From assembly GCA_001798595.1 (NCBI GenBank), contig MGSS01000114.1, positions 2,034-66,033 on the forward strand: DNA of 64,000 bases, read 5' to 3'. The stretch is from Deltaproteobacteria bacterium RIFCSPLOWO2_12_FULL_60_19. GTDB taxonomy: Bacteria > Desulfobacterota > Binatia > UBA9968. This document shows positions 5,783 to 19,397 of the stretch, piece by piece. The translations under genes were made by a program, and so were the position numbers. Each line of letters begins with the position of its first letter. Position 1 is the stretch's first letter. The notes below the pieces were generated by a model that worked only from the letters and a program-made list of their open reading frames with translations, searched no databases and was not told where the DNA came from.

Positions 5783-5858
<76 letters not shown>

Positions 5859-6086
5859 AATTTTCCCAAGTCTTTCAAGGAGTTGTTCATTGATCTAAGA
5901 GCCACTTGTTCTACCACTGTCCGCAAATTGTCCGTGTTTTGTCCGTGTTCTCTCATCCAACCGCCTTTTTCAGCGGGTAGATGACGCCGGCCTTGGCCTG
6001 CCTCTGAAGATGCTTCGTTTCGCCTCAAGTTGCGCAACCGCCCCCGTTGGTATAGCCTTTACTCGTCTACGGAAGGAGAGGGCCGC

Positions 6087-6296
6087 ATGAAACAATTCGT
6101 TGTAACTCTGACACCTGGCGAAGACGGCTACATCGTTGCCGAATGCCCCTCCTTGCCCGGTTGCGTCTCTCAAGGCAAGACCAAAGACGAAGCCTTGCAA
6201 AACATCAAGGAAGCCATCGAAGGCATCCTTGAGGTCCGCCGCGGGATGAACAATCCCATTGCTCCGCCGGAAGTCCGTTTCATCGAAATCGCCTGA
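6087..6296 (+). CDS. hicB: HicB-family antitoxin (UPF0150)
   Basis: 69 aa. ATG 6087 lies downstream of a strong SD (GGAAGGAGAG). Motifs: TLTPGEDGYIVAECPSLPGCVSQGKTKDEALQNIKEAIEG. The reading frame overlaps hicA by 1 nt. Confidence 0.7.
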   Translation: MKQFVVTLTPGEDGYIVAECPSLPGCVSQGKTKDEALQNIKEAIEGILEVRRGMNNPIAPPEVRFIEIA

Positions 6297-6514
6297 TGCC
6301 AGCCCCGCCCGTGATCTCGGGCCGGGAAGCGGCCAAAGCCTTCCAAAAGATCGGCTTTCTTTTTCATCACCAAACCGGCAGCCATATGATCTACTACCGG
6401 TCCGATGGCCGCCATCTTTCCATCCCCGATCATAAAGAGCTTGATCGAGGAACCTTGCGCGGCCTCATCAAAGGCGCCGGGATCACGGTCGAAGAATTCG
6501 TCAATCTGCTGTAG
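6296..6514 (+). CDS. hicA: HicA-family mRNA-interferase toxin (YcfA-like)
   Basis: 72 aa with the HicA pattern: G.E..KA..K.GF...HQTGSH.IY....GR.L.IP.H.KELDRGTLRG.IK.AGI. Confidence 0.7.
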   Translation: MPAPPVISGREAAKAFQKIGFLFHHQTGSHMIYYRSDGRHLSIPDHKELDRGTLRGLIKGAGITVEEFVNLL

Positions 6515-6823
6515 GTTGTCACAGGCGGCAGCCATCTCCAGTGGTTGGCGCTCCGTCAGTGCGCCGTCATCGATGATTTTATTGCCTCCAGACCTGGCCA
6601 AAGACACGGACAATTCACGGACAGGCTGGAGAAAAGGCTTGCACCGTAGGAAGTTAGGATGGCCCGTCTGATTGTCGATCACACCGGCCGCAGCGTGCTT
6701 GTCCGCCTTTTGTCCGTGTGCTGGCGCACCCATCCGCCTACGATGACCGAACAACCGAAAGGGAGCATCTTGAAATGCTTGGGGGTTTTGGTAACATGTC
6801 GCCTGTGGTTCGCCTGGGGAAGC

Positions 6824-6869
6824 ACTCTTAATCAGCGGGTCCAGAGTTCGAGTCTCCGGCGGCCCACCA
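6824..6869 (+). repeat. Partial duplicate of the tRNA-Lys(CTT) 3' half (att-type direct repeat)
   Basis: ACTCTTAATCAGCGGGTCCaGAGTTCGAGTCTCCGGCGGCCCACCA matches 5813..5858 with one mismatch. It lacks the 5' half, so it is not a functional tRNA. Confidence 0.8.
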
Positions 6870-6935
6870 AATTTTTCCCGCGAACAGCGGGGAAAATTTA
6901 GAGCATTCGAGCAATGCCTCCACGATTCCTTTCCC

Positions 6936-7853
6936 GTGAATGACCTGACCCAGGCCCGACCTCCCTTGTCCGTGGTGATCGGCGCTACCCAGCCGTGGCC
7001 CGAGATTCGCGGCTGCCTGGATTCGCTCTATGCGCAGGCCAGCGCCGCCGGGGTGGAAATCCTCGTTGCAGATGGAACCGGCCGCGCCCTGCCGGAAAAT
7101 TCACCCTATCCGGAAGTGCGCCGCCTCGAATCCCTCGGAGCGACCGTTTTCCAACTGCGCGCGCTCGCGATGGCCGAAGCGCAAGGCGAGATCGTCGCGG
7201 TCACTGAAGATCATTGCCGCGTGGCGCCGGATTGGTGCGGGCAGATCTTGCGTGCGCATCGCGAGTTTCCCGACGCGGCCGTGATCGGGGGCGCGGTGGA
7301 GAACGGCGCCACGGCGCGGCTGATCGACTGGGCCAATTTCTTCGCGTCGAACGACCGTTTTCTCCCGCCGCTCCCGGCCGGCCAGGATGGAACGGCGACG
7401 GGGCAAGCCAATATTTCATACAAGAGGCGCGTGATTCCCTGCGAATACCCGGCGCTCGATATCCTGGAAAAGTTTTACAATGAACGGCTTCGGGAGCGAG
7501 GCGAGAAGATCATCAACGACGGCAGAATTATCGTGGCGCACGTTCAGTCGTTGGGCTTTTGGGGCAGTTGTCTCATCCATTATCACGATGCGCGCGTCGT
7601 GGCCGGATTTTATCTCCCGCGCATCTCGACCCTTACCCGGCTGCTGCGCATCGCCAAGTGCCTGGCCTTTCCCCTGAGGGTTCTCGTCGCGACGGCGCGC
7701 ATCACTTTACGGACCATCCTCCGCAAGCCGGGCTACCGCGGGCGCATGTTGATGAGTTGCCCGTTGGTCGCCGTGCTGTTCTGCTTTCATACGGCCGGAG
7801 AGTTGGCTGGGTGCATCGCCGGTCCGGGCGATAGCCCGAGCCGGATGCGTTGA
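6936..7853 (+). CDS. GT2-like glycosyltransferase with C-terminal hydrophobic membrane anchor (candidate polyprenol-phosphate sugar synthase, Dpm1/GtrB-like topology)
   Basis: 305 aa, GTG start. The N-terminal half is a GT-A-like Rossmann region (SVVIGATQPW...EILVADGTG...VTEDHC). The C-terminal 90 aa hold about two predicted transmembrane segments. Size and topology fit Dpm1/GtrB/ArnC-type enzymes. The motifs are divergent, so the family call is tentative. Confidence 0.5.
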   Translation: MNDLTQARPPLSVVIGATQPWPEIRGCLDSLYAQASAAGVEILVADGTGRALPENSPYPEVRRLESLGATVFQLRALAMAEAQGEIVAVTEDHCRVAPDWCGQILRAHREFPDAAVIGGAVENGATARLIDWANFFASNDRFLPPLPAGQDGTATGQANISYKRRVIPCEYPALDILEKFYNERLRERGEKIINDGRIIVAHVQSLGFWGSCLIHYHDARVVAGFYLPRISTLTRLLRIAKCLAFPLRVLVATARITLRTILRKPGYRGRMLMSCPLVAVLFCFHTAGELAGCIAGPGDSPSRMR

Positions 7854-7878
7854 GAGGTTGGCTGGCGCGGCAGCGGCG

Positions 7879-8958
7879 CTAGCGCGATCTGCGCAGGCTG
7901 AAATAGATCGCAGCGCTTCCCACGATCAAGACGGAAACGACGCCGGCCGTTTTGGAATGAAACGACAGGACGGCCATGAGTCCCGAAACCGCAGCGACCC
8001 CGTAGAGAACCAGAACGGCGCGCGATTCTTCCATTCCCATGGCCATGAGCCGGTGATGAATATGCTCCTGGTCCCGGCGGAAGATCGCCAGGAGGCGACC
8101 GAAGAAAACTTCGCGCCCGTTAGCGCTGCCGTTGGCCGGCGACTGCCGGAATCCTCGGCGGATCACGGCCAGCAGCGTGTCCGCGATCGGCAGAGAAAGA
8201 GCGAGAATCGGCGCGAGGAGCGGCACGCCGTCGGCTTGCTGCGCGCCCCGCACGTAGAGCACCGCCAGCAGATAGCCGACGAACATGCTCCCGGAGTCGC
8301 CCATGAAGATCGAGGCGGGGGAAAAATTGTAATAGAGAAATCCGCCGAGCGCGCCGGCCAGCGCGACCGTGAGCAGGGCGACGTCCAGCCGGCCCGTTGT
8401 CAAGCTGATGATCGATAACGTCAAAGAGGCGATCAGGCCGACGCCCGCCGCCAGGCCGTCGAGACCGTCGATCAGGTTAAAGGCGTTGGTGATCCCGATG
8501 ATCCAGAGCAGCGTGATCGGCGCGGCGAGCCAGCCGAGGAGGATCGTATTGCCGGTGAGCGGATCGATGATTCGCCCGACGCCGTGGCCGTCGGCGACGA
8601 CCATCGCCGCGGCTATCGTTTGGAAGACGATCTTGGTGATCGGCTTGAGCCTGTAGACATCGTCGGCCAGGCCGAGAGCCGCGATCAGGATCGTCCCGCC
8701 GAACGCCCAGCGCCAGCTCCAAAATAATGTCCCGAGCACGGCGATGTGCCCTGGATTCACCAGAAGGGCGAGCCCTATCGAGCCGGCCAGCGCGGCCAGG
8801 ACGGCCAGGCCGCCGAGCGACGGCACGGGGCTACGGGTGGAGCGCGGGTCGCTGCGCCGGTCGACGACGCCGAAACGCAATGCCACGGCGCGAACGAGCG
8901 GCGTCGCGAGCAAACTCAATCCGGCAGCGGTGAGTCCCAGGAGTAAGTATATCAGCAC
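7879..8958 (-). CDS. Polyprenol-phosphate N-acetylhexosamine-1-phosphate transferase (WecA/MraY/Alg7 PNPT family)
   Basis: 359 aa polytopic membrane protein, GTG start. PNPT signatures: LGLADD, NAFNLIDGLDGLAAG, FMGDSGS, and HIHHRL near the C-terminus. Divergent from the oligosaccharyltransferase gene. Confidence 0.88.
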   Translation of the reverse strand: MLIYLLLGLTAAGLSLLATPLVRAVALRFGVVDRRSDPRSTRSPVPSLGGLAVLAALAGSIGLALLVNPGHIAVLGTLFWSWRWAFGGTILIAALGLADDVYRLKPITKIVFQTIAAAMVVADGHGVGRIIDPLTGNTILLGWLAAPITLLWIIGITNAFNLIDGLDGLAAGVGLIASLTLSIISLTTGRLDVALLTVALAGALGGFLYYNFSPASIFMGDSGSMFVGYLLAVLYVRGAQQADGVPLLAPILALSLPIADTLLAVIRRGFRQSPANGSANGREVFFGRLLAIFRRDQEHIHHRLMAMGMEESRAVLVLYGVAAVSGLMAVLSFHSKTAGVVSVLIVGSAAIYFSLRRSR

Positions 8959-9343
8959 GTAATGATTTCTCCCGCACCGTCAGCCCGCCTGGGAATCTCC
9001 CTCCGGGCCGATGCGATACGTCGGTGTTACGCTGCTCCCAGGAACTGAGAGTAGCTCCGAGTCACGGTTGTATCTCCTCGGCCCACGCATCGGCCCTTCG
9101 AGAGACCCCCAGGCGGGCGCGATGGCGGCTGTGCTCAATCGCTTCGGTTTCAATCATGCTCACAGAAAAACTCGCGTTCGGCAGAGACTAAAAGTTTTCC
9201 GTCTGAATGGCAAGAACAAAAAAGCCGGACGCGATCGCGGCACATGTTGCGGTTGAAGGGTTTGGCCCTTGCGGATATAGTTTCAGATTCGCCGCCCTCG
9301 AACGCTGGATTTTTTCGCTTGCGGAGGGTGGCCTCTATCACCC

Positions 9344-12163
9344 ATGCGGTCCATTTTAACCAAATTCAGCGGGGAAAGGGCAGTGTGCTGGGCGCTCGTC
9401 CTGGCGTGCACGGCCGTGGTTCTCTGGGTCCGAGCGCTTCCTTCGTCGCTTCCGGCCGCCGAGGAACTTACCGAGAGGATGGCATGGCGCAAAGTGCGGG
9501 AGCGGCTGGCGGCGGAACAGACAAACCGGCCTGCCGGGGAGGAGGGGAAGGCGCGCGTCGAAGAGGCGGCTCGCGAGTGGGTGGAAAATAATCGAGCTGA
9601 ATACGATGCCGCCAAAGCGTCGCTCACGGTCCAGTTGAAATCGGATATGAGCTTCGAAGCCGGAGATGGGCGGCGGTATGCCTATCTCGGCGACTTCGAC
9701 AGCTACGTGTGGCTGCGCAACGCGCGCAACTATCTCCGCCAAGGGACCACGTGCGATGCGGTGGTCGACGGCGAGTGCCGGGACAGCTACGGCCATGCGC
9801 CGGTGGGGTCTCGCATGATCTACAACCGCTCGCTCCACATCGCCGCGATTGTGGGCGTCCATAAACTGGCCACGCTGTTCAATCCCGGCTATCCTCTTTC
9901 GGCGAGCGCGTTTCTCGTGCAAGTCCTGGTCGGGGCGTTGGGGGCGCTCCCCGCCTTCTTCCTCGGCCGCCATTTTGGGGGCAATCTCGGCGGACTCTTT
10001 GCGGCGCTCCTGATATCGCTCCAGCCCGTGTTTCTCTACCGCAGCCTTGGCAGCGACAACGACGTGTGGAACGTGGTGTTGCCGTTGTTTATCGGGTGGG
10101 CGGCGCTCGCGGCGTTAAAATCCCCAAAAATCCTTCTTGCGGGAACCTACGCAGTCCTGGCAGGGGCGTGGACCGGAATCCATGCCTCAGTCTGGCGCGG
10201 GTGGGTTTTTACTTACGCCGTCGTATTGTGCGCCGCGCTCGGCTACTTGGCTCTCGTCGGCATCAGGCAGGCGATGCGTGAGGGGGTGCGGCGCCTGTGG
10301 CAGGCTGAAGAGGTTCGAAAGATCGCCTGCGTGGTCGTGGCTTACTACGTCGCCGCAGGCCTCTTTACGCTGCTCGCCGGCGCCGGCGATTCCGGCTTTT
10401 TCGGTCCGTTGCAGTCCATCGCCGCGGACCTGAGGTCGAGGCTGGACATCAGCGAGAAGGCCGCCACGCGGAACCTTTGGCCGCCGGTGTTCAATACGGT
10501 CGGGGAGCTGAGGAGGCCGTATTCGGAGGGAATCGTGCGGCTGATGGGCGGCGCGCTGTTTTTCTTCGGCGGCTGGCTTGGCCTCTTGTCGCTCCTCCTG
10601 CCCAAGCGAGGCTGGCGATGGCCTGAGTTTACTCTCGCAGGTTCCACGACGGTTCTCCATGTCTTGGGCTATTACGTTTTCGCCGCGAGCGATCTCGGCA
10701 ACGCGGTCGTTCTCTTGTTCGCCCTGTTGCCGGGGGCGTACCTGATCTTTCGGGTATGCAGCCGGAGTTCCGATCGAAACTTCGACCCCGGGCCGGCGCT
10801 GCTGATCCTTGTCTGGTTTATCGTCGCCCTCAGCATGTTTTATTACGGCACCCGTTTTTCGATTCTGTTTGTCGTCCCGTTCGGCGTTGCGTTTGGAGCC
10901 GGCGCCGATCGTGTCCGGCAGTGGCTCGCCGGGCAGATGCTCCGCATGGCGCCGCGCTTTCCGTCGATCGCGAGCGCCGCGAGCTATGCCGTTATGCTGG
11001 CCGTTCTTGCGCCGCCGGTTCTCGCCGGCTATGCGACGGCGAAGAACCATCGGCCGGACATCCATTCGGCGTGGTGGAACAGTCTAGGCAAGATTCGCGA
11101 GGAATCCCGGCCGGACGCCATCGTCAATGTCTGGTGGGACTACGGCTATTGGGCCAAGTACGCGGCCGAGCGGCGAGTCAGCCACGACGGCGGCTCGCTC
11201 CAAACCCACCTTCCCCATTGGTTAGCCAAGGCGCTGGTCGCGCCGACGGAAGCGGAGAGCCGCGGCATCCTGCGGATGCTCGACTGCGGGTCGGATGCCA
11301 CGCCTCTGCCGGAAGGCGCTCAGGGAGCCTATGGCAAGCTCAGGGCGACGGGGCTGGACGACGTCGCAGCCTACGCGATCCTGTTGAAGGTCGTTAAGCT
11401 CAGCCGGGCCGAGGCCGAGCGCTATCTTGCCGACCGGGGGCTGACCCCGGCGCAACAAAGGGACATTCTTGCCGCCACGCACTGCCGGCCTCCCGAGGCA
11501 TTTCTCGTCCTCAGCCGGGACATGATGCGCGCGGAAAAATGGATCAGGCTCGGCACGTGGGACGTGGCGAGAGCCTATCTGGCTCATCGCACGCGGCGGC
11601 TGCCGAGAGACTTGGGCGAGCAGGAGCTTCGAGATCGCTTCGACGCCAGTCCCGCCGAGGCGCGGGCGTTTTACAAGCGGCTCGCGGCGATGGAATCGGC
11701 AACCGAGATAGCCGACTACGTCGCGCCGCCGCAGCGCCTGATATCCAGGGAGTGGGTTTCGTGCGGCAGCGCGGACGGCGGAGCGGAGATGAGTTGCCGG
11801 ATTGCCGTCCCCCACGAGGGACAAACAAAAATTCTCTATTTCTTATACGACCCCGCCTTGCCAAAAGAGGGCAGGTTGAAAGACGACCAGGGCGAAGGCC
11901 GGCCGGCCGTCACTCTCGTGGCCGGAGCCGAGCGGCTGGAAGAGAGCGCCGCTCTGTCGCCGGAGTTTCCCGAGGTGGGCGTGTTGATGGACCCGGCCAA
12001 CCAGCGCATCCTCATCGGCTCGCCGTTGTTGATCCGCTCGACGATAGTGCGCCTGCTTTACCTAGGCGAGCGCTATCCCAAATACTTCAAGCCGTTCGAC
12101 CGCAGGAGCACGCTGCTCGGCGACGAAGTCACAACCTGGAAGATAGAGTGGGAGGGGGAGTAG
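9344..12163 (+). CDS. STT3/AglB/PglB-family oligosaccharyltransferase (GT-C, N-glycosylation)
   Basis: 939 aa with about 13 N-terminal TM helices and a large C-terminal soluble domain. WWDYGYW lies at residues 597-603 (nt 11132..11152). A DGGSLQTHLPHW motif follows it, resembling the eukaryotic/archaeal DNNTWNNTHI (DK-type) region. The first external loop has GDFDSYVWLRNARNY (cf. STT3 DPYFNYR). The second loop has GSDNDVWN (cf. GSYDNE). A 385-nt leader precedes the gene. Confidence 0.8.
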   Translation: MRSILTKFSGERAVCWALVLACTAVVLWVRALPSSLPAAEELTERMAWRKVRERLAAEQTNRPAGEEGKARVEEAAREWVENNRAEYDAAKASLTVQLKSDMSFEAGDGRRYAYLGDFDSYVWLRNARNYLRQGTTCDAVVDGECRDSYGHAPVGSRMIYNRSLHIAAIVGVHKLATLFNPGYPLSASAFLVQVLVGALGALPAFFLGRHFGGNLGGLFAALLISLQPVFLYRSLGSDNDVWNVVLPLFIGWAALAALKSPKILLAGTYAVLAGAWTGIHASVWRGWVFTYAVVLCAALGYLALVGIRQAMREGVRRLWQAEEVRKIACVVVAYYVAAGLFTLLAGAGDSGFFGPLQSIAADLRSRLDISEKAATRNLWPPVFNTVGELRRPYSEGIVRLMGGALFFFGGWLGLLSLLLPKRGWRWPEFTLAGSTTVLHVLGYYVFAASDLGNAVVLLFALLPGAYLIFRVCSRSSDRNFDPGPALLILVWFIVALSMFYYGTRFSILFVVPFGVAFGAGADRVRQWLAGQMLRMAPRFPSIASAASYAVMLAVLAPPVLAGYATAKNHRPDIHSAWWNSLGKIREESRPDAIVNVWWDYGYWAKYAAERRVSHDGGSLQTHLPHWLAKALVAPTEAESRGILRMLDCGSDATPLPEGAQGAYGKLRATGLDDVAAYAILLKVVKLSRAEAERYLADRGLTPAQQRDILAATHCRPPEAFLVLSRDMMRAEKWIRLGTWDVARAYLAHRTRRLPRDLGEQELRDRFDASPAEARAFYKRLAAMESATEIADYVAPPQRLISREWVSCGSADGGAEMSCRIAVPHEGQTKILYFLYDPALPKEGRLKDDQGEGRPAVTLVAGAERLEESAALSPEFPEVGVLMDPANQRILIGSPLLIRSTIVRLLYLGERYPKYFKPFDRRSTLLGDEVTTWKIEWEGE

Positions 12164-12165
12164 GT

Positions 12166-13275
12166 CTACCATCGGCCTTTCATGATCTCCTCGCAGGCGG
12201 CGACTAAGTTCTCCGCCGCGTCGAGCTCGATGGGAAGTTTGGCCGGGCTGGATGAATGCTTTCGGGATTCGTAGTCGCGGAAAAATGAGACGATCTCGGA
12301 CGCCAGCGAATTGACTTCCCACTCTTCTTCCCGGACCCACAACCCTTCCCCCGCTTCTGCAAAGGCCATCGCATTTGGAATCTGGTGATCGGAGGCGGCG
12401 GTGGAGAGAGGCACCAGCAGAGCGGGCAAATTACAGACCCGCAGCTCGGAAATGGTCTGCGATCCGGCGGAGCAGATAGCAAAATCCGCCCAGACGTAGG
12501 CCCCGGCCATGTCGTCAATAAAGGTTGTCACCGACGCGACGACGCCCGCCCGGCTGTAAGCGGAGCGGGTGGGTTCTAAAGAGACCTCGCCCGCCTGGTG
12601 CAGCACCTCAGGAACAAGACCATGCTTTGCAACTTCGGGCAGCAACGCGGGGACGCTGCGATTTAAAAAATTTGATCCGCCGGAGCCGCCGGTGACCAGG
12701 ATTCGCATGCGTGAGCCGGAGAGATCAGAGATGGTCGTTTTTTTGTGCCTGACGGAGACGATCTCTTGACGGACGGGATTGCCGGTCACTATTGTGCGGG
12801 ATTTGGGAAACGCCGATTGGGTCTTCTCGAAAGCGAGATAGATTCTGTCGACCAGACGGCCGAGCCATTTGTTAGTCAGACCGGGAACAACATTGGCCTC
12901 GTGGATCGCGGTGCGTAGTCCCAGGCTCAGCGCGGCGAGTAGGGCACCCCCCGAAGCGTAGCCTCCGAAGCCGATGACCAACTTTATTTTCTTTGTTTTA
13001 AACAGCTGTCGCGCCTGCGCCGTTCCCGCCGCCATGCTTCCCAGAGCGCGAATTTTTCCGCCGACGCCCTCGCCGAGCAGCGGCCCTCCCTGGATCAGTT
13101 CCAGATGGTAGCCGTGGGCCGGAATCAGGCGGGATTCGAGACCGCTCGCCGTGCCGATGAACAAAAATTCCGTCTCCGGGAAAATCCGGTGATACGCATC
13201 CGCCAGCGCCAAGGCCGGATAGACGTGGCCCGCCGTGCCGCCGGCGGCAATGGCTATTCTTCTCTGTGTCGCCAT
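12166..13275 (-). CDS. MurG-like GT28 UDP-GlcNAc transferase (candidate Alg13/Alg14-equivalent adding second GlcNAc; genuine peptidoglycan MurG not excluded)
   Basis: 369 aa. MurG motifs: IAIAAGGTAGHVYPALA, GFGGYASGGALLAALSLGLRTAIHEANVVPGLTNKWL, ILVTGGSGGS, AYVWADFAICSAGSQTISE..LPALLVP. There is no mraY/murD/ftsW/murC context. The gene sits divergently against the ALG1-like gene inside the glycosylation cluster. Confidence 0.75.
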   Translation of the reverse strand: MATQRRIAIAAGGTAGHVYPALALADAYHRIFPETEFLFIGTASGLESRLIPAHGYHLELIQGGPLLGEGVGGKIRALGSMAAGTAQARQLFKTKKIKLVIGFGGYASGGALLAALSLGLRTAIHEANVVPGLTNKWLGRLVDRIYLAFEKTQSAFPKSRTIVTGNPVRQEIVSVRHKKTTISDLSGSRMRILVTGGSGGSNFLNRSVPALLPEVAKHGLVPEVLHQAGEVSLEPTRSAYSRAGVVASVTTFIDDMAGAYVWADFAICSAGSQTISELRVCNLPALLVPLSTAASDHQIPNAMAFAEAGEGLWVREEEWEVNSLASEIVSFFRDYESRKHSSSPAKLPIELDAAENLVAACEEIMKGRW

Positions 13276-13304
13276 CTTATGTGGAAGTGGATTCGCGGCT
13301 CAGT

Positions 13305-13318
13305 TATATTATAATATA
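13305..13318. promoter_or_regulatory. Perfect 14-nt AT palindrome TATATTATAATATA in the 58-bp divergent region between the MurG-like and ALG1-like genes (shared -10/operator candidate)
   Basis: Seen directly in the sequence. It is the only AT-only stretch within about 3 kb of GC-rich DNA. It lies between ATG 13275 (minus strand) and ATG 13334 (plus strand). Confidence 0.4.
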
Positions 13319-13333
13319 GCCGCGCGCTCTGCT

Positions 13334-14653
13334 ATGGCATCCAAACAGGGAACCCGTGTAACCGTCATCGTGCTCGGCGATCTGGGCCGCAGCCCGCGCA
13401 TGAGATACCATGCTCTCGCGCTCGCCGACAGCGGCGTCCAGGTGGATCTGATCGGCTACGCGGGCAGCGCTCTACCGCGGGCGTTGTGCGGCCATCCGCG
13501 GATACGTTGCCATCTGATGGCGCCAATGCCGCTTCGGTTTCTCAATCGCTTTAAAAACGCGCTCTTCCCAGCCGTTTCGCTTGTGAAAATCGTCGTGCAG
13601 GCCGCGCGTCTTTTGTGGCTGCTGCTGTTCGTCGTCGGCAAGCCCGATGCCGTTCTGGTCCAAAATCCCCCGGCGGTTCCGACGCTCATGGTTGCGCTGT
13701 TGTCCGCCCGGCTGCGGTCCGCGAGGCTGATTATCGACTGGCACAATTTCGGCTACACGATGCTCGCTTTGAAATTAGGGTCGTCCAGTTTGATTGTTCG
13801 ATGGATGCGCCGGCACGAGCGGGCGTTGGGCCGCCGCGCGGACGCGCACCTCTGCGTCTCGCGCGCGATGCAGCTCGAATTAGAAAATCACTGGGGGTTC
13901 TCCAAGGCGACTCTGCTCTATGATCGCCCGGCGGCCGGTTTCATGTCCGCCGAGCCGGATGAGCGTCGCGCGCTGCTCCACCGCCTCACGTCCGTCTCGG
14001 CTCTCGTGCCCACGCAGTATCGCCTGGATGCGCCGGCGCGGCCGGCGATCCTCGTCAGCGCGACGAGCTGGACGCAGGATGAAGATTTTGATTTGCTTCT
14101 CGACGCGCTCGCTCGGTGCGATCGGGCCCTTCGACCGTTCGACGGGGCTTACGGCTCAGGGCAGGCCGTCCGCGAGCGCAAACGACTTCCGTTCCCGCGC
14201 CTCCTGATGTTAATCACCGGCGACGGTCCCCTGCGCGAGTCCTATGAAGCCCGCATCCGCGGCATGTCCCTCAACCGCATTCACGTGCAGACGCTCTGGC
14301 TGTCGCCGGAAGATTATCCGCTCTTGCTCCGGGCCGCCGACCTCGGCGTCTGCCTGCACCGGTCTTCGTCCGGGCTCGACCTTCCGATGAAAGTGGCGGA
14401 CATGCTGGGCTCCGGTCTGCCCGTCTGCGCGCTCGACTACGGCCCCTGTCTCGGGGAGCAGCTCCGACACGGCGAGAACGGCCTTCTTTTTTCCGACAGC
14501 GGCGGACTGGCGGAGCAAATCTTGGACTTATTCAATGGATTTCCGGATGAGAGCCCTTTGCTCGATCGATTGCGATGTAACATCTTAGGCTCAACCCGGC
14601 GTCGTTGGTCGGAGGAGTGGCGGGACGCGGCGTTCTCGACCATTATCGGATAG
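13334..14653 (+). CDS. ALG1-like beta-1,4-mannosyltransferase (GT33 family; chitobiosyl-diphospho-polyprenol mannosyltransferase candidate)
   Basis: The similarity to eukaryotic ALG1 covers most of the length (about 40-470 of 472 aa). Matching motifs include PRMRYHALALADSG..V.LIGY (ALG1 PRMQYHALSLA), LVQNPPAVP....ARLIIDWHNFGYTML (ALG1 LQNPPGLP...KLVIDWHNYGYSIM), LCVSRAM..L...W, ILVSATSWTQDEDFDLLLDAL (ALG1 LLVSSTSWTEDEDFSILL), MLITGDGPLRESY, and WLSPEDYPLLLRAADLGVCLHRSSSGLDLPMKVADMLGSGLPVCALDY (near-identical to ALG1). The ORF track starts at 13235. That longer form would add a hydrophobic N-terminal segment, but it would overlap the divergent gene and include the AT palindrome, so ATG 13334 is preferred. 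Confidence 0.78.
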   Translation: MASKQGTRVTVIVLGDLGRSPRMRYHALALADSGVQVDLIGYAGSALPRALCGHPRIRCHLMAPMPLRFLNRFKNALFPAVSLVKIVVQAARLLWLLLFVVGKPDAVLVQNPPAVPTLMVALLSARLRSARLIIDWHNFGYTMLALKLGSSSLIVRWMRRHERALGRRADAHLCVSRAMQLELENHWGFSKATLLYDRPAAGFMSAEPDERRALLHRLTSVSALVPTQYRLDAPARPAILVSATSWTQDEDFDLLLDALARCDRALRPFDGAYGSGQAVRERKRLPFPRLLMLITGDGPLRESYEARIRGMSLNRIHVQTLWLSPEDYPLLLRAADLGVCLHRSSSGLDLPMKVADMLGSGLPVCALDYGPCLGEQLRHGENGLLFSDSGGLAEQILDLFNGFPDESPLLDRLRCNILGSTRRRWSEEWRDAAFSTIIG

Positions 14654-14753
14654 TGACGGTTTTCCCGTTCGCTCTGGCAACGGGCTTGGGGGCCATTTTG
14701 CACGGCGTGGCGGAACCGGATAGAAGCCGGCCTTAACGTAGCCGGATGTAACT

Positions 14754-16595
14754 TTGATGATAGCGCAACTCAAAAAATGCCGGGCGTTATTATCGCCGCG
14801 CACGCGCTGGCGCTGGGCCGCGTTGATTCCGCTGGCGGTGGCGGCGGCGGCAATGGAAGCGTTGGGCGCCGCGGCGGTCTTTTTTCTCATCAAAGTTCTT
14901 AGCGATCCGACGCAAGCGACCGCCTACCCGCTCGTCTCCTCGCTCATCGCCATGCTCCCATGGCACAGCAGCGAGACGGTCGTGCCATCGCTCACGTTCC
15001 TCGTGGCCGTTTTCTATCTGTTCAAAAACAGCCTGTTGGCCTGTGTGACGTACGCGCAGAGGAAGGTGGTGAGCGACTCCCAGGCCGCGCTGGCACGCCG
15101 GATGCTCCAGGGCTATCTCGCGCTGCCGTACGCGGCGCACCTGCGCCGCAACTCGGCGGAGCTGGTGCGCAACATGACGGATTCGGTTCACAAAACCTTC
15201 CACAATGTTCTGTTGCCGGCCTTGGGAGTCGTCACGGAGCTGTTGGTGGTCATAGGCATCATCATCGTGCTGATGGCCACGGCCCCGTGGGTGACGCTGA
15301 TCGCGGTGGGAGTGTTGTTCAGCGCGATGGCCGCGCTATTGAAGCTGACGCGCTATCGCATCGCGCGATGGGGCGCCCAGGAACAGGGGCTGAGAAAGGA
15401 CACGCTCCAGAGTTTGCATCAGAGCATGGGCGGGCTGAAAGAGATCAAGGTGATGGGTCGCGAGCGATTCTTCTACGCCAGGTTTTCCCGCTTGCAGCAA
15501 GCGCTCGCCGACGTCACTTGTTTTTATGAAACCCTCGCTTACATCCCTCCGCTCCTGGTGGAGATGATCTTCGTCTTCGGCATGGTGGTGGTGATCCTGT
15601 CGATCACGGCGCGAGGCGGTCCGGGAGAGAACGCCATTCCGCTGCTTGGGCTTTGCGCGTACGGCGGCTTCCGGGTCATGCCGGCCGTGAACCGGGTTCT
15701 TAGGCATTTGAACCATATCCGGTTCGGCACGGCGGCGATCGATCAGCTTTACCGCGACCTCAAGCTGTTCGACGACAATCCCGGCGGCGGTCTAGGTCCA
15801 TCCGGGGAAAAAGGCACCCGATTCGCGGATCGGATCGTGCTCGAGCGGGTACGCTACACCTACGAAGGCAGCGCGACGCCGGCCCTGCGCGAGATCGACC
15901 TCACTATTCGTTGCGGCGAATCCGTTGGGATTGTCGGTCCAACCGGCTCGGGGAAAAGCACCTTGATCAATGTCATCCTCGGCCTCCTGCGTCCGTCGTC
16001 GGGACGGCTGACGGTCGATGGCAGGGATGCCTTCGATAATCTCCGTCTCTGGCAGCGCAAAATCGGCTTTGTGCCGCAGGAGATCTATCTCACCGACGAC
16101 AGCCTGCGCCGCAACATCGCTTTTGGGCTGGAGGACGAAGAGATCGACGAGCGACAGGTGAAAGCGGCCATCCGCCTGGCGCAGCTCGAGGACCTGGTAG
16201 CGTTGTTGCCGCTCGGCCTCGACACCGTAATCGGCGAACGGGGCATACGGCTGTCGGGCGGCGAGCGCCAGCGCGTGGCGATCGCGCGGGCGCTCTATCA
16301 CGAGCCGGAACTGCTGGTGTTCGACGAAGCGACCTCGGCCTTGGACAACCAGACCGAACGCGCGGTCTCCCGCGCGATCGACGCCTTGCAAGGCAACAAA
16401 ACTCTGATTCTTATCGCCCACCGGTTGAGCACCGTGCGCAAGTGCGGCCGCCTGATATTTTTGTGCGCCGGCCGGGTGGCCGGCAGCGGCACCTTCGAAC
16501 AACTGTTGCAGACCAACAGAGAGTTCCGCGAGCTGGTCGCCAGCTACGATCCCGCCGACGCCGCTGCTACCGAGATCCCGCCGGGCCGGATGTAG
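14754..16595 (+). CDS. ABC exporter, fused permease plus ATPase (MsbA/PglK/Wzk-like; candidate lipid-linked oligosaccharide flippase)
   Basis: 613 aa. The N-terminal domain has six TM helices. Walker [13 protein letters not shown] signature [15 protein letters not shown], Walker [13 protein letters not shown], and the H-loop are all present. Confidence 0.85.
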
Positions 16596-17745
16596 ACGCG
16601 GCATCGAATTCGTTTACGATTTCCCGGATGCGGCGGATGAAATGATCGACGGAGAACAACGACTTCTGCCCGCTTAAATGGGAGCGCAGAGAGAACCGCA
16701 AGTCCGCGTCGGTCATCGCCCGGATAATTTTTGTCGCCGCCTCCTCACGTGTCCCGTATAAGAGACGATCCTCTTTTCCGATAATTTCCGTCAGGCCGCC
16801 GCCGCGGGGGGCGAAGACGATGCAGCCCCCCTGGATCATCTCCGCCACCGCCATCCCGAAGTGCTCCTCTTCCATGCCGTGAATGCCGTAGCGGTGGGTC
16901 GAGACCAACCGGACGAGCCGTTCGCGCGGGACATCCTCTTCAAAAAAGATCCAAGAGGCGTTGGCTCGCACGCGCCGCAGGATGCGCTCGTAGTAATGTC
17001 GGGGATCGTCGCGGCTGCCTATAAGGTGCAGATGGAGATCGGAGCCGCCGCTTCTCAGCCAGGCCAGAATGTCGATAATCTTATCCAGTTCCTTTTCGGG
17101 AGCGATCCGGCCGATGCAGACGAAACCGTTTTCACGCTCCTGCCACGGGATGTCGGGAAAATCGGCGGCAATGGGCGGGTAAAGCACGATGCTTTCGATG
17201 CCATGCCGCTCTCTCACTTTGCTGCCGGTCCAGGCCGAGTTCACGAGGGTGAGATTCTGCCGCATCTGGTCAAAGGAAAATCCCGCAACCTGCGCGCACA
17301 AGCGATGATAGGCGTTCACCACACCCGGAAAGCGGTGGTACCAACTTAAGTCCGCCGGCGGACGGGGCAGGCACGCCCACGGGAAATGGATATATTGGAT
17401 TCCAGGACGGCCAAAGTCGGCTTCGTTGTTGGCCGTGATGATAACGTCATAATCGTTCTTCAACTTTTTGCAGAAGCGCAGCAAGAGATGGTTCTTCAAC
17501 AAGCTTGCCGGCGTGGGAACCAGGGCCAGGAGCCGGCGCAGAGCCGGGGGGACGCCATAGGCCCGGAAGTCCGCCGCGCTGAGCGCGGTGCCGTAGTAAC
17601 GATTGATCGAGTCGAGGTGGACGGGCTCCCACGTCAGCAGCGAAACGGCGTGGTCCCGTTTCAGGGCCTCGACGATCCAGACGGCGACCCCATTGCCTCC
17701 TCCCGGCGGCTGCATCGACGGCTGAACCAGCAGAATTGTTTTCAT
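16567..17745 (-). CDS. GT4 (GT-B) glycosyltransferase, Alg2/Alg11-type mannosyltransferase candidate
   Basis: Track ORF 16567..17811. The preferred start is ATG 17745 (MKTILLVQPS...PPGGGNGVAVW), which matches the GT4 N-terminus. The C-terminal EEHFGMAVAEMIQGGCIVFAPRGGGLTEII matches the GT4 E.FG...E.M..G.P.....GG..E motif. A 29-nt convergent 3' overlap with the ABC gene is present. Confidence 0.72.
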   Translation of the reverse strand: MKTILLVQPSMQPPGGGNGVAVWIVEALKRDHAVSLLTWEPVHLDSINRYYGTALSAADFRAYGVPPALRRLLALVPTPASLLKNHLLLRFCKKLKNDYDVIITANNEADFGRPGIQYIHFPWACLPRPPADLSWYHRFPGVVNAYHRLCAQVAGFSFDQMRQNLTLVNSAWTGSKVRERHGIESIVLYPPIAADFPDIPWQERENGFVCIGRIAPEKELDKIIDILAWLRSGGSDLHLHLIGSRDDPRHYYERILRRVRANASWIFFEEDVPRERLVRLVSTHRYGIHGMEEEHFGMAVAEMIQGGCIVFAPRGGGLTEIIGKEDRLLYGTREEAATKIIRAMTDADLRFSLRSHLSGQKSLFSVDHFIRRIREIVNEFDAASTSGPAGSR

Positions 17746-17971
17746 CGGAGAACTTGAGATGCGAGTGACTTGCAATCCGTGCGCCTCGCGCCACGGAAAC
17801 TTAGCACACAAAACGAAAGATTGTGAACTGCCGGGGCTTCGCGGGTGAGCATCTCCGTCGCCGCGTTACGGTTTGGCCTTGACTTAGGCGCGGTTGTTCC
17901 CTACTCTTTTTTCTGAGTTTGGTTACTTACGGGACTTTGAGTCGCCGGCTTCGGCGTTCCGGCCAAAAAAC

Positions 17972-18054
17972 GCGAGAGTGGCGGAATTGGCAGACGCACT
18001 AGACTTAGGATCTAGCGGGTAACCGTGGGGGTTCGACTCCCCCCTCTCGCACCA
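17972..18054 (+). tRNA. tRNA-Leu(TAG), long variable arm
   Basis: Acceptor GCGAGAG/CTCTCGC, anticodon loop CTTAGGA, 13-nt variable arm, T-arm GGGGGTTCGACTCCCCC, CCA encoded. Confidence 0.8.
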
Positions 18055-18080
18055 GCAATCGCCAGCGGCGCTCCGATTTA

Positions 18081-19397
18081 ATGAAGTTTGACATAGATAT
18101 TGTAAGCTCCACGCAGAGAAAGATCCGCGTCGAGCTCCCCGGCGAAGCGGTGAACCGGGAATTCGTCCGCGCCTACGACAATCTCGGCCGGCGCGCGCGC
18201 ATCAAGGGATTTCGCCCCGGCAAGGCGCCGCGCTCCGTGCTGGAGAAGCTCTACAGCGACGAGGTCAAGGGGCAGGTTCTTTCCCATCTGGTCGAGCACT
18301 CGCTCGGCGAATGCTTCAAGGAGCGCGGGCTCAAGGTGATCGCCGATCCCGAGGTGGAAGCCGATAGCCTCGAAGAGGGCAAGGCCTTCGCTTTCTCGGC
18401 GGTGGTTGAAGTCAAGCCGGAATTCGAAGTCAAAAATTACCGCGGGCTCGAGGTAGAAAAGATCAAGCTCGCCGTGAGCGATGAGCAGGTCGAATCCGCA
18501 CTCGGCCGCCTGCGCGACGGCCACGCGCAGTTGGCGCCCGTGGAAGATCGGGATCAAGTCGAGCAGGGAGACTTTGTCACGCTCGATTTTGTCGGGTCCG
18601 TCGACGGCAAGCCTTTCGAGGGCGGAAAAGCCGAGCATTATGTGATGGAGGTGGGCGGCGGTCATACGCTGCCGGAATTTGAGGCGGCGCTGGTGGGCTT
18701 GAAAAAAGATATCGGAGCGACGATCCGCGTCCCCTATCCTCAAGATCATTTTAACCGCGAGCTGGCGGGGAAAACGGTCGAGTTTTCCGTGAGCGTGCGG
18801 GAGATCAAAAAGAAAGTGCTTCCTCCCCTCGATGACGAATTCGCCAAGGACCACGGCGATTGCGCGACTCTCGCGGAACTCAGAGACAAGCTTCGCACCC
18901 GGCTGGAGAGCGAGCTCCGGGATATTCAAACCCGGGAATTAAAAGAACAGCTGGTGACGCGCCTCGTCGAGGCCCATGGCTTCGACGTTCCTCAGACGCT
19001 GGTCGAGCGCCAACTGCGCTACCTCGTGGAGCGGCGCCAGGGACGGCAGCCGGGCTCGGATCGCGGCGCGCCGGGAGACAAATCCACCGTCGAAGAGCTC
19101 AGAAAAGATCTGGAGCCGCATGCGCGCCGCCAGGTCAAAGCGATGCTCCTGCTGGAAAAGATCGCGGAGCTGGAAAACGTCAGCGTCTCCGACGGCGAGG
19201 TGCAGCAGCGGATCGAAGGCATGGCGCGTTCCGCAGGGGAGCAGGCCGCCTCGCTGCGCCAATTCTACGGCCGCGCGGACGCGCAGGCGCATCTGCGCGA
19301 CCAGATGGCGACCGATCGCACGCTCGGCATGCTTCTGGAATGGGCGAAGATCAGAGAAATAGCCCAGCCCATTGATGCACCGGAGAAAAACAGCTAA
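18081..19397 (+). CDS. tig: Trigger factor
   Basis: 438 aa with the N-terminal ribosome-binding signature GFRPGKAPRSVLEKLY. tig-clpP-clpX-lon synteny is present. Confidence 0.92.
   Translation: MKFDIDIVSSTQRKIRVELPGEAVNREFVRAYDNLGRRARIKGFRPGKAPRSVLEKLYSDEVKGQVLSHLVEHSLGECFKERGLKVIADPEVEADSLEEGKAFAFSAVVEVKPEFEVKNYRGLEVEKIKLAVSDEQVESALGRLRDGHAQLAPVEDRDQVEQGDFVTLDFVGSVDGKPFEGGKAEHYVMEVGGGHTLPEFEAALVGLKKDIGATIRVPYPQDHFNRELAGKTVEFSVSVREIKKKVLPPLDDEFAKDHGDCATLAELRDKLRTRLESELRDIQTRELKEQLVTRLVEAHGFDVPQTLVERQLRYLVERRQGRQPGSDRGAPGDKSTVEELRKDLEPHARRQVKAMLLLEKIAELENVSVSDGEVQQRIEGMARSAGEQAASLRQFYGRADAQAHLRDQMATDRTLGMLLEWAKIREIAQPIDAPEKNS

Follow-up and report, generated by a model that had tools for sequence, protein, structure and literature searches.

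A cluster of seven genes probably encodes a pgl-like bacterial N-glycosylation system, one that would build a Man-β1,4-GlcNAc2 core on polyprenol diphosphate. This proposal is built from demonstrated family assignments, conserved catalytic residues, ALG1 orthology, a MurG subfamily distinct from other MurG proteins, and the finding of the cluster in further genomes. The window analyzed is a 64,000-nucleotide stretch of the metagenome-assembled genome of an uncultured Binatia-like bacterium with the NCBI name Deltaproteobacteria bacterium RIFCSPLOWO2_12_FULL_60_19. A preliminary description had named seven adjacent open reading frames, and an ORF check combined with Pfam searches confirmed 7/7 at their coordinates with the folds it gave them; the PF02516, PF00953, PF03033/PF04101, and PF00534 profiles all matched. 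Because the genes face in both directions and make up four or more transcription units, they form a cluster and not a single operon. The window contains 12 tRNA genes and has an even G+C content (0.57–0.64). Its large open reading frames resemble rpoB and rpoC in size and order, and a gene run near the cluster is presumably trigger-factor/ClpP/ClpX/Lon-like, as identified by eye from the sequence. The cluster sits in an ordinary bacterial chromosome. The domain scan and the open reading frames revealed no gene of the Wzy, WaaL, or Wzx type within the cluster.

The gene at 13334–14653 (+ strand) encodes a 439-residue GT33 protein that had been described as an ALG1-like β-mannosyltransferase. 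Yeast Alg1, a query sequence verified by exact look-up, aligned with it by BLASTP over residues 8–430, essentially full length, with 35% identity (251 bits, E = 2e-83), and yeast Alg2 gave no alignment at E ≤ 10. The AF2 model has a GT-B fold (pLDDT 87.6), and many homologues carry the JGI label 'beta-1,4-mannosyltransferase'. The sequence comparison makes this a strong assignment as an ALG1 orthologue. The bacterial ALG1 family has 3161 matches; the 120 listed are 48–100% identical to the window protein, and the organism names among them, where given, are Candidatus Binatia or Deltaproteobacteria. The 39 homologues aligned with the window protein are 51–88% identical to it, and an ALG1 gene is found in every full cluster. 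ALG1 homologues from Binatia, Polyangia, and Gammaproteobacteria are β1,4-mannosyltransferases on GlcNAc2-PP-phytanyl and complement yeast alg1, the Binatia enzyme making Man-β1,4-GlcNAc2-PP-phytanyl in vitro and rescuing the mutant (bioRxiv 10.1101/2025.10.15.682550). The 'Deltaproteobacteria' homologues DeALG1 and DeALG2 were inactive in the same work (bioRxiv 10.1101/2025.10.15.682550). The window genome has the same NCBI label as DeALG1, which may or may not be the window protein.

The gene at 12166–13275 (− strand) encodes a MurG-type GT28 N-acetylglucosaminyltransferase with both the N- and C-terminal domains (PF03033 and PF04101). It exceeds the TIGR01133 murG threshold (266.5, cut-off 250.25) and scores 204 bits with E. 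coli MurG (1f0k) compared to 23 bits with yeast Alg13 and 18 bits with Alg14. The earlier placement of a GT28 enzyme in the Alg13/14 position stands; the protein is not an Alg13/14 orthologue. The protein keeps a GGTAGH loop and an invariant E125. These are the equivalents of the H14 and E114 motifs, which are common to MurG, Alg14, and Agl24 (PMC8993221). The phylogeny was run for the MurG part of the set. In a neighbor-joining tree of 83 MurG sequences, the 7 that are linked to such clusters are monophyletic with a bootstrap of 100/100 and stand apart from the 76 others. Identity is 52% inside the cluster-linked clade and 33% to the other 76, which have a mean identity of 41% among themselves. 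MurG genes with ≤41% identity lie in the MurD-FtsW-MurG-MurC (dcw) context in 5/5 sampled cases, whereas dcw neighbors were found beside none of the cluster-linked genes. These data identify the gene, by sequence, as a member of a separate MurG subfamily that is bacterial in type and tied to STT3/ALG1 clusters. Its acceptor specificity would be that of a GlcNAc2 (chitobiose)-forming enzyme.

The 939-residue protein encoded at 9344–12163 (+ strand) matches PF02516 (91 bits) and PF21436 (25 bits), the STT3/PglB/AglB core domain. A membrane domain extends to about residue 563 and is followed by a soluble carboxy terminal domain of about 375 residues that carries WWDYG at 597–601. Among 31 family members, D119, R233, D238, D240, V386, E388, R504, and G601 are invariant, and D117, W597, W598, D599, and Y600 are nearly so (≥90%). 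The family profile aligns R233/D238/D240 with PglB R147/D154/D156, E388 with E319, R504 with R375, and WWDYG with PglB 457–461. The catalytic acidic residues D238, D240, and E388 are therefore among the invariant positions. In solved structures, the WWD motif contacts the +2 Ser/Thr of the sequon. These data support a strong assignment as a single-subunit STT3-family oligosaccharyltransferase, in line with the preliminary description. The transferase is not eukaryote-like: PglB, AglB, and STT3 are about equally far from it (31–37 bits by family profile), and it has no N-X-S/T 'double sequon' after WWDYG. The TIGR04154 archaeal STT3 model gave 49 bits compared to 16.5 bits for the PglB equivalog model (cut-off 1300), and the full-length non-bacterial relatives are DPANN and Methanosarcinales archaea at 24–27% identity. 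A DK or MI motif was sought in the protein and none was located. The family comprises 748 clusters at 50% identity (E ≤ 1e-30).

The remaining four genes would supply the initiating enzyme, a flippase, and further glycosyltransferases. The protein encoded at 7879–8958 (− strand) is a polytopic polyprenol-phosphate HexNAc-1-P transferase of the WecA/MraY superfamily (PF00953, 147 bits) with about 10 hydrophobic segments. It scores 107 bits against the TIGR02380 WecA model (cut-off 326) and 37.7 bits with yeast Alg7; the best match among PDB sequences is MraY at 55 bits, with DPAGT1 at 32 bits. The sequence points to an initiating enzyme of bacterial (WecA/MraY) type and a putative GlcNAc-1-P transferase, so the HexNAc-1-P transferase half of a WecA/Alg7 label holds and the Alg7 half does not. 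Counterparts occur in the clusters of L002, L003, L013, L083, and L085. The half-size ABC exporter at 14754–16595 (+ strand; PF00005 and PF00664) matches both the MsbA model TIGR02203 (298 bits, cut-off 602) and the PglK model NF050066 (280 bits, cut-off 1000) at scores far under the cut-offs. It is about equally MsbA- and PglK-like and, as had been proposed, a candidate flippase, whose substrate is suggested by its context. Counterparts with 44–60% identity are present in L001, L002, L003, L013, L083, and L092.

The protein encoded at 16567–17745 (− strand) is a GT4-type retaining GT-B glycosyltransferase (PF00534, 50 bits; AF2 pLDDT 89.9) whose PDB matches are generic GT4 enzymes only. It has the EX7E motif (EHFGMAVAE) and counterparts in L001, L003, L013, and L085, but not in L002 or L083, and its homologues carry only the JGI label 'glycosyltransferase involved in cell wall biosynthesis'. 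The Alg2/Alg11-like assignment proposed for this protein was abandoned. It scores 30.8 bits with yeast Alg2 and has PPGGGNG in place of the ALG2 GIGGAER loop, whereas true ALG2 orthologues in sister clusters score 203–255 bits (33–43% identity). A divergent GT2-like protein is encoded at 6936–7853 (+ strand; PF00535, 31 bits, cut-off 23.3). It had been counted as a membrane-anchored member of the set. The GT2 match was confirmed, but no counterpart was found in any related locus compared, the GT2 of L083 is unrelated, and the window protein falls in a cluster of just 4 sequences, all from very close relatives. A membrane anchor is suggested by two moderately hydrophobic carboxy terminal stretches. 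Membership of the GT2 protein in the system is doubtful.

The synteny of related genomes was compared. Genes for the WecA-like, STT3, MurG-like, ALG1-like, and ABC proteins, with or without the second GT4, are grouped in L001, L002, L003, L013, L083, and L085 and partly in L092, which makes at least seven other assemblies where the set reappears with its genes rearranged. The grouping is not due to chance, because the same genes adjoin elsewhere in a different order. STT3, ALG1-like, and GT4 matches often share a longest contig size (for example, 17370, 21438, 127434, and 183122), and sequence-identical STT3 and ALG1-like proteins recur on contigs from independent assemblies. The tRNA-Lys and tRNA-Leu genes that flank the cluster are also present in L002, at 64–75% DNA identity. 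In L005, an ALG2 orthologue lies directly downstream of the STT3 gene, and one sister cluster has an Alg9-like GT-C. The sequence examined of L004, L005, L009, L014, and L081 contains STT3 and no ALG1 or MurG-like gene. The contig ends near the STT3 gene in L005 and L009.

In the proposed pathway, the WecA-like enzyme would transfer GlcNAc-1-P to polyprenol phosphate, presumably undecaprenol phosphate, on the cytoplasmic face. The dedicated MurG paralogue would add β1,4-GlcNAc to give chitobiose-PP-lipid, and the ALG1 orthologue would use GDP-Man to attach β1,4-mannose to GlcNAc2-PP-polyprenol. Extension of the glycan past the first mannose could fall to the second GT4 and perhaps also to the GT2. 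The ABC exporter would then flip the lipid-linked oligosaccharide across the membrane to face the periplasm, and there the single-subunit STT3-family enzyme would attach it to the asparagine of N-X-S/T sequons in exported proteins. We infer the lipid carrier, the sugar specificities of the first, second, and fourth steps, the flipping, and the transfer to protein. Neither an ALG2 nor an ALG11 orthologue was found in the window, and therefore only Man1GlcNAc2 is supported. The Man-GlcNAc2 core of the Man(n)GlcNAc2-PP-polyprenol product predicted earlier is a reasonable prediction, and its Man(n) extension is unproven. Nor is the set the complete eukaryote/archaea-style one that had been claimed: the enzymes of the first two steps are bacterial in type.

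The lipid-linked oligosaccharide might instead not be destined for asparagine. It could enter an envelope glycoconjugate or be released as free periplasmic oligosaccharides, with the STT3-like protein acting as a ligase or hydrolase; PglB in Campylobacter hydrolyzes its donor and frees periplasmic oligosaccharides. Bacterial pathways for envelope glycans routinely include WecA-type, MurG-type, GT4, and MsbA-like ABC proteins, and the JGI label places the GT4 family in cell wall biosynthesis. The transferase clade has no characterized member and is remote from every solved transferase, and no acceptor protein or sequon preference was found. However, to our knowledge, all STT3/AglB/PglB enzymes characterized so far transfer oligosaccharides to asparagine. 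The conservation of WWD (≥90%) and of the catalytic acidic and arginine residues (invariant or nearly so) argues for the same function here, as does a cluster devoid of Wzy, WaaL, and Wzx type genes. We regard a non-asparagine fate as unlikely.

A partly coincidental neighborhood is markedly less probable. The MurG-like gene would then be the housekeeping murG, the WecA-like enzyme would serve elsewhere, no chitobiose would be made, and ALG1 would use another acceptor. The score above the curated murG equivalog threshold and the strong resemblance to E. coli MurG fit this reading, but the separate clade with its low identity to the other 76 sequences and the lack of dcw neighbors do not. Adjacency of the MurG-like gene to ALG1 and STT3 is kept through the shuffling of gene order at seven loci, and GlcNAc2-PP-lipid is the known ALG1 acceptor (bioRxiv 10.1101/2025.10.15.682550). 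Least credible of all is either an artefact (for example, a chimeric assembly or wrongly binned DNA of a eukaryote or archaeon) or a eukaryotic origin by very recent transfer. In favor of this are the metagenomic assembly of the source genome and at least one related contig (L016) that is labeled Woesearchaeota but appears mislabeled given its 56.5% G+C and SurA-like neighbor. Against this, the cluster is contiguous with the bacterial tRNA genes, the rpoB/rpoC-sized open reading frames, and the trigger-factor/ClpP/ClpX/Lon-like run at even G+C; the identical proteins come from independent assemblies; and L002 has the same flanking tRNA genes. Bacterial ALG1 proteins form a large, diverse family, and since the window protein is just 35% identical to yeast Alg1, any transfer is ancient.

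The proposed N-glycosylation pathway resembles known systems in different parts. Campylobacter pgl (PglC/A/J/H/I, PglK, PglB) likewise has clustered glycosyltransferases that build on polyprenol diphosphate in the cytoplasm, a half-size ABC exporter that flips the product, and a single-subunit STT3-family WWDYG enzyme that transfers it, the roles predicted here. The window clearly differs from this bacillosamine-based system, as the preliminary description held. There are no bacillosamine genes, a polytopic WecA/MraY-type enzyme replaces the PglC-type initiator, and the glycan would be assembled by a MurG paralogue together with an ALG1 orthologue. The transferase is far from PglB (16.5 bits, cut-off 1300; 37 bits by family profile), and the ABC protein is well under the PglK cut-off (280 compared to 1000). 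The eukaryotic ER pathway (Alg7, Alg13/14, Alg1, Alg2, Alg11, STT3) shares the orthologous ALG1 step and the predicted order of GlcNAc-P, GlcNAc, and β-Man, and sister clusters, but not the window, add ALG2 orthologues and in one case an Alg9-like GT-C. In the window, bacterial-type enzymes that are not orthologous to Alg7 and Alg13/14 would carry out the first two steps, ALG2/ALG11 orthologues are absent, an ABC exporter is the candidate for flipping, and presumably undecaprenol, not dolichol, serves as carrier. The single-subunit transferase is not specifically close to eukaryotic STT3 and lacks the double sequon.

Reportedly, Valderrama-Rincon et al. 2012 engineered E. coli with WecA, yeast Alg13/14, Alg1, and Alg2, and PglB to make Man3GlcNAc2 N-glycoproteins. 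Its components are almost those of the window: it begins with WecA and continues with another GlcNAc transferase, Alg1, flipping, and a single-subunit bacterial transferase, and its further mannosyltransferase would correspond to the second GT4 here. It is synthetic, with genes from three organisms, whereas the comparable window set appears to be natural, in a single locus, with a MurG paralogue where the engineered pathway has Alg13/14. The Sulfolobus Agl pathway (AglH, Agl24, AglB) also pairs a HexNAc-1-P transferase with a MurG-fold enzyme to make GlcNAc2-lipid and uses a single-subunit transferase, AglB (PMC8993221). Agl24 is only ~16% identical to MurG (PMC8993221), whereas the window protein is a true MurG family member. 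The nearest non-bacterial full-length relatives of the window transferase are archaeal, and the archaeal loci compared have Alg7-like genes near AglB where the window has a WecA-like gene. Archaea have no reliable ALG1 homologues (bioRxiv 10.1101/2025.10.15.682550).

The earlier view that no such bacterial system had been described stands in part. Functional bacterial ALG1 and ALG2 homologues have been reported by Xu et al. 2025, and their ALG1 proteins belong to the same family as the window ALG1 (bioRxiv 10.1101/2025.10.15.682550). That work treats the enzymes singly, as evidence on the origin of eukaryotic genes, and neither STT3 nor an operon or gene cluster comes up in its text (bioRxiv 10.1101/2025.10.15.682550). 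The window adds the finding that ALG1 is clustered with a MurG paralogue, a candidate flippase, and an oligosaccharyltransferase. These relationships suggest that some bacteria may attach the eukaryotic N-glycan core to their own proteins.

The seven open reading frames that the preliminary description assigned to a complete Alg-type N-glycosylation set with its oligosaccharyltransferase were all found at their original coordinates, in a region with locus tags A3F90_15345 to A3F90_15365. They encode a GT2-like protein (6936–7853, + strand; PF00535, a weak match of 31 bits), a WecA-like protein (7879–8958, − strand; PF00953, 147 bits), a 939-residue STT3-family protein (9344–12163, +), a MurG-like GT28 protein (12166–13275, −; matches to both GT28 domains and to the murG equivalog model), a 439-residue ALG1-like protein (13334–14653, +), an ABC exporter (14754–16595, +) and a second GT4 protein (16567–17745, −). 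The ALG1-like and second GT4 proteins each have a GT-B, GT4-type domain. The STT3 and murG-like genes are convergent with their stops 2 bp apart (12163–12166), and the ABC and second GT4 genes have a 29-bp tail-to-tail overlap (16567–16595). A scan of the cluster for promoters and terminators gave no clear signal over background.

Judged by its tRNA genes, ORF layout, flanking genes, and G+C, the host DNA is bacterial. The G+C of the window is even (0.57–0.64), and it contains 12 tRNA genes; an Rfam search of the window returned tRNAs and nothing else. Window ORFs match the EF-Tu, rpoB/rpoC, and ribosomal-protein region by size and order alone, and the ORFs immediately past the cluster resemble, on reading of their sequences alone, trigger factor, ClpP, ClpX, and Lon. 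Close relatives are labeled Candidatus Binatia, Binataceae, or Binatus. The cluster is bounded exactly by tRNA-Lys (5783–5858, plus a partial copy) and tRNA-Leu(TAG) (17972–18054). The cluster of L002, one of the related loci from other assemblies (L numbers) compared with the window, is likewise bounded by tRNA-Lys (66–141, plus a partial copy) and tRNA-Leu(TAG) (17078–17162). The 3′ part of the window tRNA-Lys(CTT) (5813–5867) is duplicated at 6824–6878 (55 nt, 96% identity), and a HicB-like antitoxin gene (about 6087–6296) and a HicA toxin gene (6296–6514) lie between the two copies. This arrangement (5783–6878) resembles what an element integrated at tRNA-Lys would leave behind. L002 shares the tRNA-Lys and its partial copy, there with an insert of 4.1 kb.

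The 939-residue protein matches PF02516 at residues 110–556 (91.1 bits, cut-off 24.5) and the STT3/PglB/AglB core domain PF21436 at residues 593–641 (25.3 bits, cut-off 23). The sequence VNVWWDYGYW occupies residues 594–603 at the start of the soluble domain. Conserved positions were defined on 31 aligned homologues with 37–85% identity to the window protein. Residues D119, R233, D238, D240, V386, E388, R504, and G601 are invariant, and at least 90% of the homologues have D117, W597, W598, D599, and Y600. A profile built from this alignment was searched against solved structures, among them Campylobacter lari PglB. The family profile aligns R233 with PglB R147, D238 and D240 with D154 and D156, E388 (within TVGEL) with E319 of the TIME motif, R504 with R375, and WWDYG with PglB residues 457–461. 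The counterpart of PglB D56 was placed by motif alone, in the sequence GDFDSYVWLR inside the Pfam-matched region, which contains the invariant D119 and the nearly invariant D117. The preliminary description made its claim depend on the presence of the catalytic acidic residues, and D238, D240, and E388 are both present and invariant in the family. Because the conserved residues align with the PglB catalytic residues and WWDYG, the alignments indicate an STT3-family oligosaccharyltransferase with intact catalytic machinery. In a hydropathy scan, residues 14–563 contain approximately 11–13 hydrophobic segments (about 13 spans are typical) and are followed by approximately 375 mostly hydrophilic residues. 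Neither a DK nor an MI motif was recognized in the protein sequence or the family consensus. The protein is predicted to move a lipid-linked glycan onto asparagine.

By profile comparison, the transferase is distant from every characterized enzyme. The family profile scored 37 bits with PglB, 35 with Archaeoglobus fulgidus AglB, 31 with human STT3A, and 29 with yeast Stt3, and the window protein scored 49 bits with the archaeal STT3 model compared to 16.5 bits with the PglB equivalog model. A double N-glycosylation sequon after WWDYG marks the eukaryotic, Asgard, and TACK STT3 proteins (PMC8993221). The sequence just after WWDYG in the window protein is AKYAAERRVSHDGGSLQTHLPHWLAKAL, which lacks N-X-S/T. 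The protein was rejected as a eukaryote/Asgard/TACK-type STT3 based on the missing double sequon and on STT3A and yeast Stt3 scores that are no better than those of PglB and A. fulgidus AglB. The family comprises 748 clusters at 50% identity (E ≤ 1e-30). Its non-bacterial full-length relatives come from DPANN and Methanosarcinales MAGs and are 24–27% identical to the transferase. The closest nominally archaeal STT3, which is 37% identical and lies on a contig labeled Candidatus Woesearchaeota UBA10207 (L016, DUGD01000054.1), was rejected as a close archaeal relative; the contig is probably bacterial and mis-binned because its G+C is 56.5% and a SurA-like periplasmic PPIase/chaperone adjoins its STT3 gene. 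STT3 adjoins periplasmic folding factors in two loci, this SurA-like protein (694–2217) and a DsbA/thioredoxin-like protein in L081 (8755–9852). Cysteines 137, 145, 648, 714, and 818 are invariant in the STT3 family and C807 is present in at least 90% of members; the conserved cysteines may form periplasmic disulfides.

An exact look-up of the yeast Alg1 query returned 'chitobiosyldiphosphodolichol beta-1,4 mannosyltransferase [S. cerevisiae S288C]'. BLASTP aligned residues 8–430 of the window ALG1-like protein with residues 40–439 of yeast Alg1 at 35% identity (251 bits, E 2e-83), and yeast Alg2 gave no alignment to it at E ≤ 10. This near full-length match upholds the GT33 assignment of the preliminary description and identifies the 439-residue protein, at the level of sequence, as an ALG1 orthologue. 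The JGI pipeline names many of its homologues 'beta-1,4-mannosyltransferase'. A PDB sequence search with the protein returned nothing relevant, and the PDB contains no closer relative and no ALG1. Foldseek searches of the PDB with models of the ALG1-like and second GT4 proteins returned generic GT4 matches alone, at 12–19% identity, which do not separate the families. According to a 2025 preprint, ALG1 homologues of Binatia, Polyangia, and Gammaproteobacteria transfer a β1,4-mannose onto GlcNAc2-PP-phytanyl and complement yeast alg1; those labeled Deltaproteobacteria and Methylomirabilota showed no such activity or rescue (bioRxiv 10.1101/2025.10.15.682550). By analogy with the active enzymes, the window protein is predicted to be a GDP-Man:GlcNAc2-PP-lipid β1,4-mannosyltransferase. 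Its annotated 439-residue form has no N-terminal membrane anchor. An upstream GTG at 13235 would lengthen it by 33 residues (13235–13333), and this extended form has a hydrophobic stretch at residues 4–22 that resembles the eukaryotic ALG1 membrane anchor. With this extension, the ORF and the murG-like gene on the opposite strand would overlap at the start of the latter. The extension is absent from the homologues, and those listed are mostly about 400–460 residues long.

The MurG-like protein was placed by the preliminary description in the position of Alg13/14. Its GT28 identity held. The protein scored 266.5 bits with the TIGR01133 murG equivalog model, slightly above the cut-off of 250.25, and 204 bits with Escherichia coli MurG (1f0k). 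Similarity to Alg13/14 was low: yeast Alg13 scored 23.1 bits (E 0.004) and yeast Alg14 18.5 bits (E 0.17). The protein was rejected as Alg13/Alg14 on these scores; the GGxGH/E motifs and the fold that it has in common with Alg13/14 are family-level features only. An alignment of the cluster-linked MurG proteins was used to scan metagenome contigs, and three matches were 47–49% identical to the window protein (L085, L092, and L086). The L085 and L092 genes adjoin ALG1-like genes, L085 also has STT3, and the L086 flanks are too short to judge. None of the matches at or below 41% identity had ALG1-like or STT3 neighbors, and all five of the ordinary murG genes sampled in this range lie between ftsW and murC in the dcw cell-wall and division cluster. 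The neighbors of the window gene are STT3 and ALG1, not dcw genes. In a neighbor-joining tree of 83 MurG sequences, the seven cluster-linked proteins were monophyletic with a bootstrap of 100/100, and they are 52% identical within the clade and 33% identical to the remaining sequences. Based on its neighbors and separate clade, this is a distinct MurG subfamily tied to the cluster, and neither gene position nor clade membership agrees with an ordinary dcw peptidoglycan murG. These findings fit the prediction that the protein transfers a second GlcNAc onto GlcNAc-PP-lipid.

The WecA-like protein belongs by sequence to the WecA/Alg7 superfamily because of its 147-bit match to PF00953. It scored 107.5 bits with the TIGR02380 WecA equivalog model (cut-off 326), 55 bits with a solved MraY, and 37.7 bits over 164 residues with yeast Alg7. 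The product of 14754–16595 has ABC exporter architecture, as expected for the MsbA/PglK-like flippase claimed at the outset. Its similarity to the two named families fell short, with approximately equal scores of 279.8 bits for the PglK model NF050066 (cut-off 1000) and 297.7 bits for the MsbA model TIGR02203 (cut-off 602), far below both cut-offs. Conserved linkage points to this exporter as the candidate flippase. The window GT2 (6936–7853) had been counted as a pathway member. No counterpart was found in the related loci, and it is also unrelated to the GT2 in L083; its membership is doubtful. The idea that it is a Dpm1-like synthase supplying a donor for periplasmic extension was rejected because it has no conserved counterpart and the window contains no GT-C partner.

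The second GT4 (16567–17745) had been labeled Alg2/Alg11-like. ALG2 was defined by an N-terminal GIGGAER loop, the EX7E motif EHFGIVPLE, and overall similarity, and the loop is essential in ALG2 (bioRxiv 10.1101/2025.10.15.682550). The yeast Alg2, Alg13, Alg14, and Alg7 queries were each confirmed by exact look-up. Yeast Alg2 scored 30.8 bits with the second GT4, over its C-terminal part alone. The loop of the window protein is PPGGGNG in place of GIGGAER, and its EX7E motif is EHFGMAVAE with alanine where ALG2 has a critical valine. The ALG2 label was withdrawn on these three counts. A yeast Alg11 query that gave no exact match on look-up, so that the comparison is only indicative, scored 54.7 bits at 25% identity over the C-terminal 183 residues alone, and a search for the ALG11_N Pfam domain gave no match at E ≤ 0.01. 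By sequence comparison, the protein is a generic GT4. Thus, the eukaryote-style character claimed for the whole set does not extend to the WecA-like, MurG-like, and second GT4 proteins; these glycan-building parts other than ALG1 are bacterial in type because of their low scores to yeast Alg7, Alg13, Alg14, and Alg2.

The synteny comparison proposed in the preliminary description was performed, and the gene set recurs in related loci with its order and orientation shuffled. It is present in L001 (Binataceae), L002 (labeled Verrucomicrobiia, although its flanking tRNA genes match those of the window), L003 (the 1.8-Mb contig CAWFFN010000005.1, of 72% G+C), L013 (Binatia), L083 (a 183-kb contig), and L085. 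The shorter L092 contig has the ABC, ALG1, and MurG genes only. The available sequence of five loci (L004, L005, L009, L014, and L081) contains STT3 and no ALG1 or MurG-like gene. True ALG2 orthologues were found in L083 (19631–20860), L085 (about 5469–6674, − strand), L001 (17538–18735), and L005 (12569–13765). They are 33–43% identical to yeast Alg2, with best segments of 166–255 bits, and the L083 protein has the motifs GFGGAGR and EHFGYGPIE. The gene is inside the cluster in L083, L085, and L001, with the L001 coding sequence divided between two frames. In L005 it lies directly 3′ of STT3. An ALG2 orthologue is absent from the window and from the L002, L003, and L013 loci. The L083 cluster also includes, at 14990–18154, a small GT2, a 483-residue GT-C, and an epimerase, and the GT-C scores 50 bits with PMT_2 and 31 bits with the Alg9-like GT22 family. 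By analogy with the eukaryotic luminal phase, these three genes hint at periplasmic extension from a lipid-phosphate sugar. The window has neither a small GT2 nor an Alg9-like GT-C of the L083 type. L002 has a radical-SAM/SPASM-cupin fusion and a strong GT2 between its MurG-like and ALG1-like genes (10871–13742), and L013 has an FkbM-type methyltransferase (8345–9295). Since accessory genes differ between clusters, glycan decoration may be lineage-specific.

On the reading that the sequence comparisons support best, the cluster encodes a pgl-like system for N-glycosylation in bacteria whose glycan core is of eukaryotic type. The WecA-like enzyme would initiate the glycan, the MurG paralogue would add the second GlcNAc, and the ALG1 orthologue would add β-mannose. 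The second GT4 would carry out further extension with unspecified sugars, the ABC exporter would flip the lipid-linked glycan, and the STT3-family enzyme would move it onto asparagine. Support for this pathway consists of family assignments, motif conservation, orthology, and linkage; we infer its chemistry except for the ALG1 activity, which is known in a homologue. The main rival explanation is that the glycan ends up elsewhere than on protein. Conservation of the WWD and catalytic motifs makes such a fate less likely, as does the record of the STT3 family itself: to our knowledge, its characterized members perform asparagine transfer or donor hydrolysis and nothing else. A broader proposal builds on the N-glycosylation reading, and we consider it tentative and on balance unlikely. 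It holds that a Man(1–3)GlcNAc2 core is naturally N-linked to the exported proteins of Binatia-like and related bacteria by a pre-assembled module (the MurG paralogue, ALG1, a flippase, a single-subunit STT3-type transferase and, in the sister clusters, ALG2), and that such a bacterial module, not an archaeal one, gave rise to the ALG1/ALG2 steps of the eukaryotic ER pathway. If this were true, a natural bacterial transferase that prefers eukaryote-type donors would exist.

A 2016 survey found no prokaryotic ALG1 relatives and considered ALG1 a possible eukaryotic invention (PMC4973528). Functional bacterial ALG1 homologues were shown later, in a preprint on bacterial ALG1 and ALG2 homologues in which the words STT3, operon, and gene cluster do not occur (bioRxiv 10.1101/2025.10.15.682550). 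A full-text literature search, with most subscription journals outside its scope, found no paper joining bacterial ALG1/ALG2 homologues to an oligosaccharyltransferase or a gene cluster, and none joining STT3/AglB to Binatia, Methylomirabilota, Polyangia, or Myxococcota. Each part by itself is known already or has an automatic annotation. The assembled system appears undescribed in the literature searched, in line with the preliminary description, which knew of no bacterial system of this kind. We know of bacterial STT3-type N-glycosylation only in Campylobacter-like and Desulfovibrio-like systems, whose glycans are unlike the eukaryotic core. For glyco-engineering, the cluster is a natural bacterial source of a candidate transferase and candidate glycan-assembly enzymes with which eukaryote-type N-glycoproteins could be made in bacterial hosts. 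The eukaryote-type core predicted here bears on the scope of bacterial N-glycosylation. The window also indicates the probable purpose of the bacterial ALG1 enzymes, which is to act within a conserved cluster with an oligosaccharyltransferase, a predicted chitobiose-forming MurG paralogue, and a candidate flippase.
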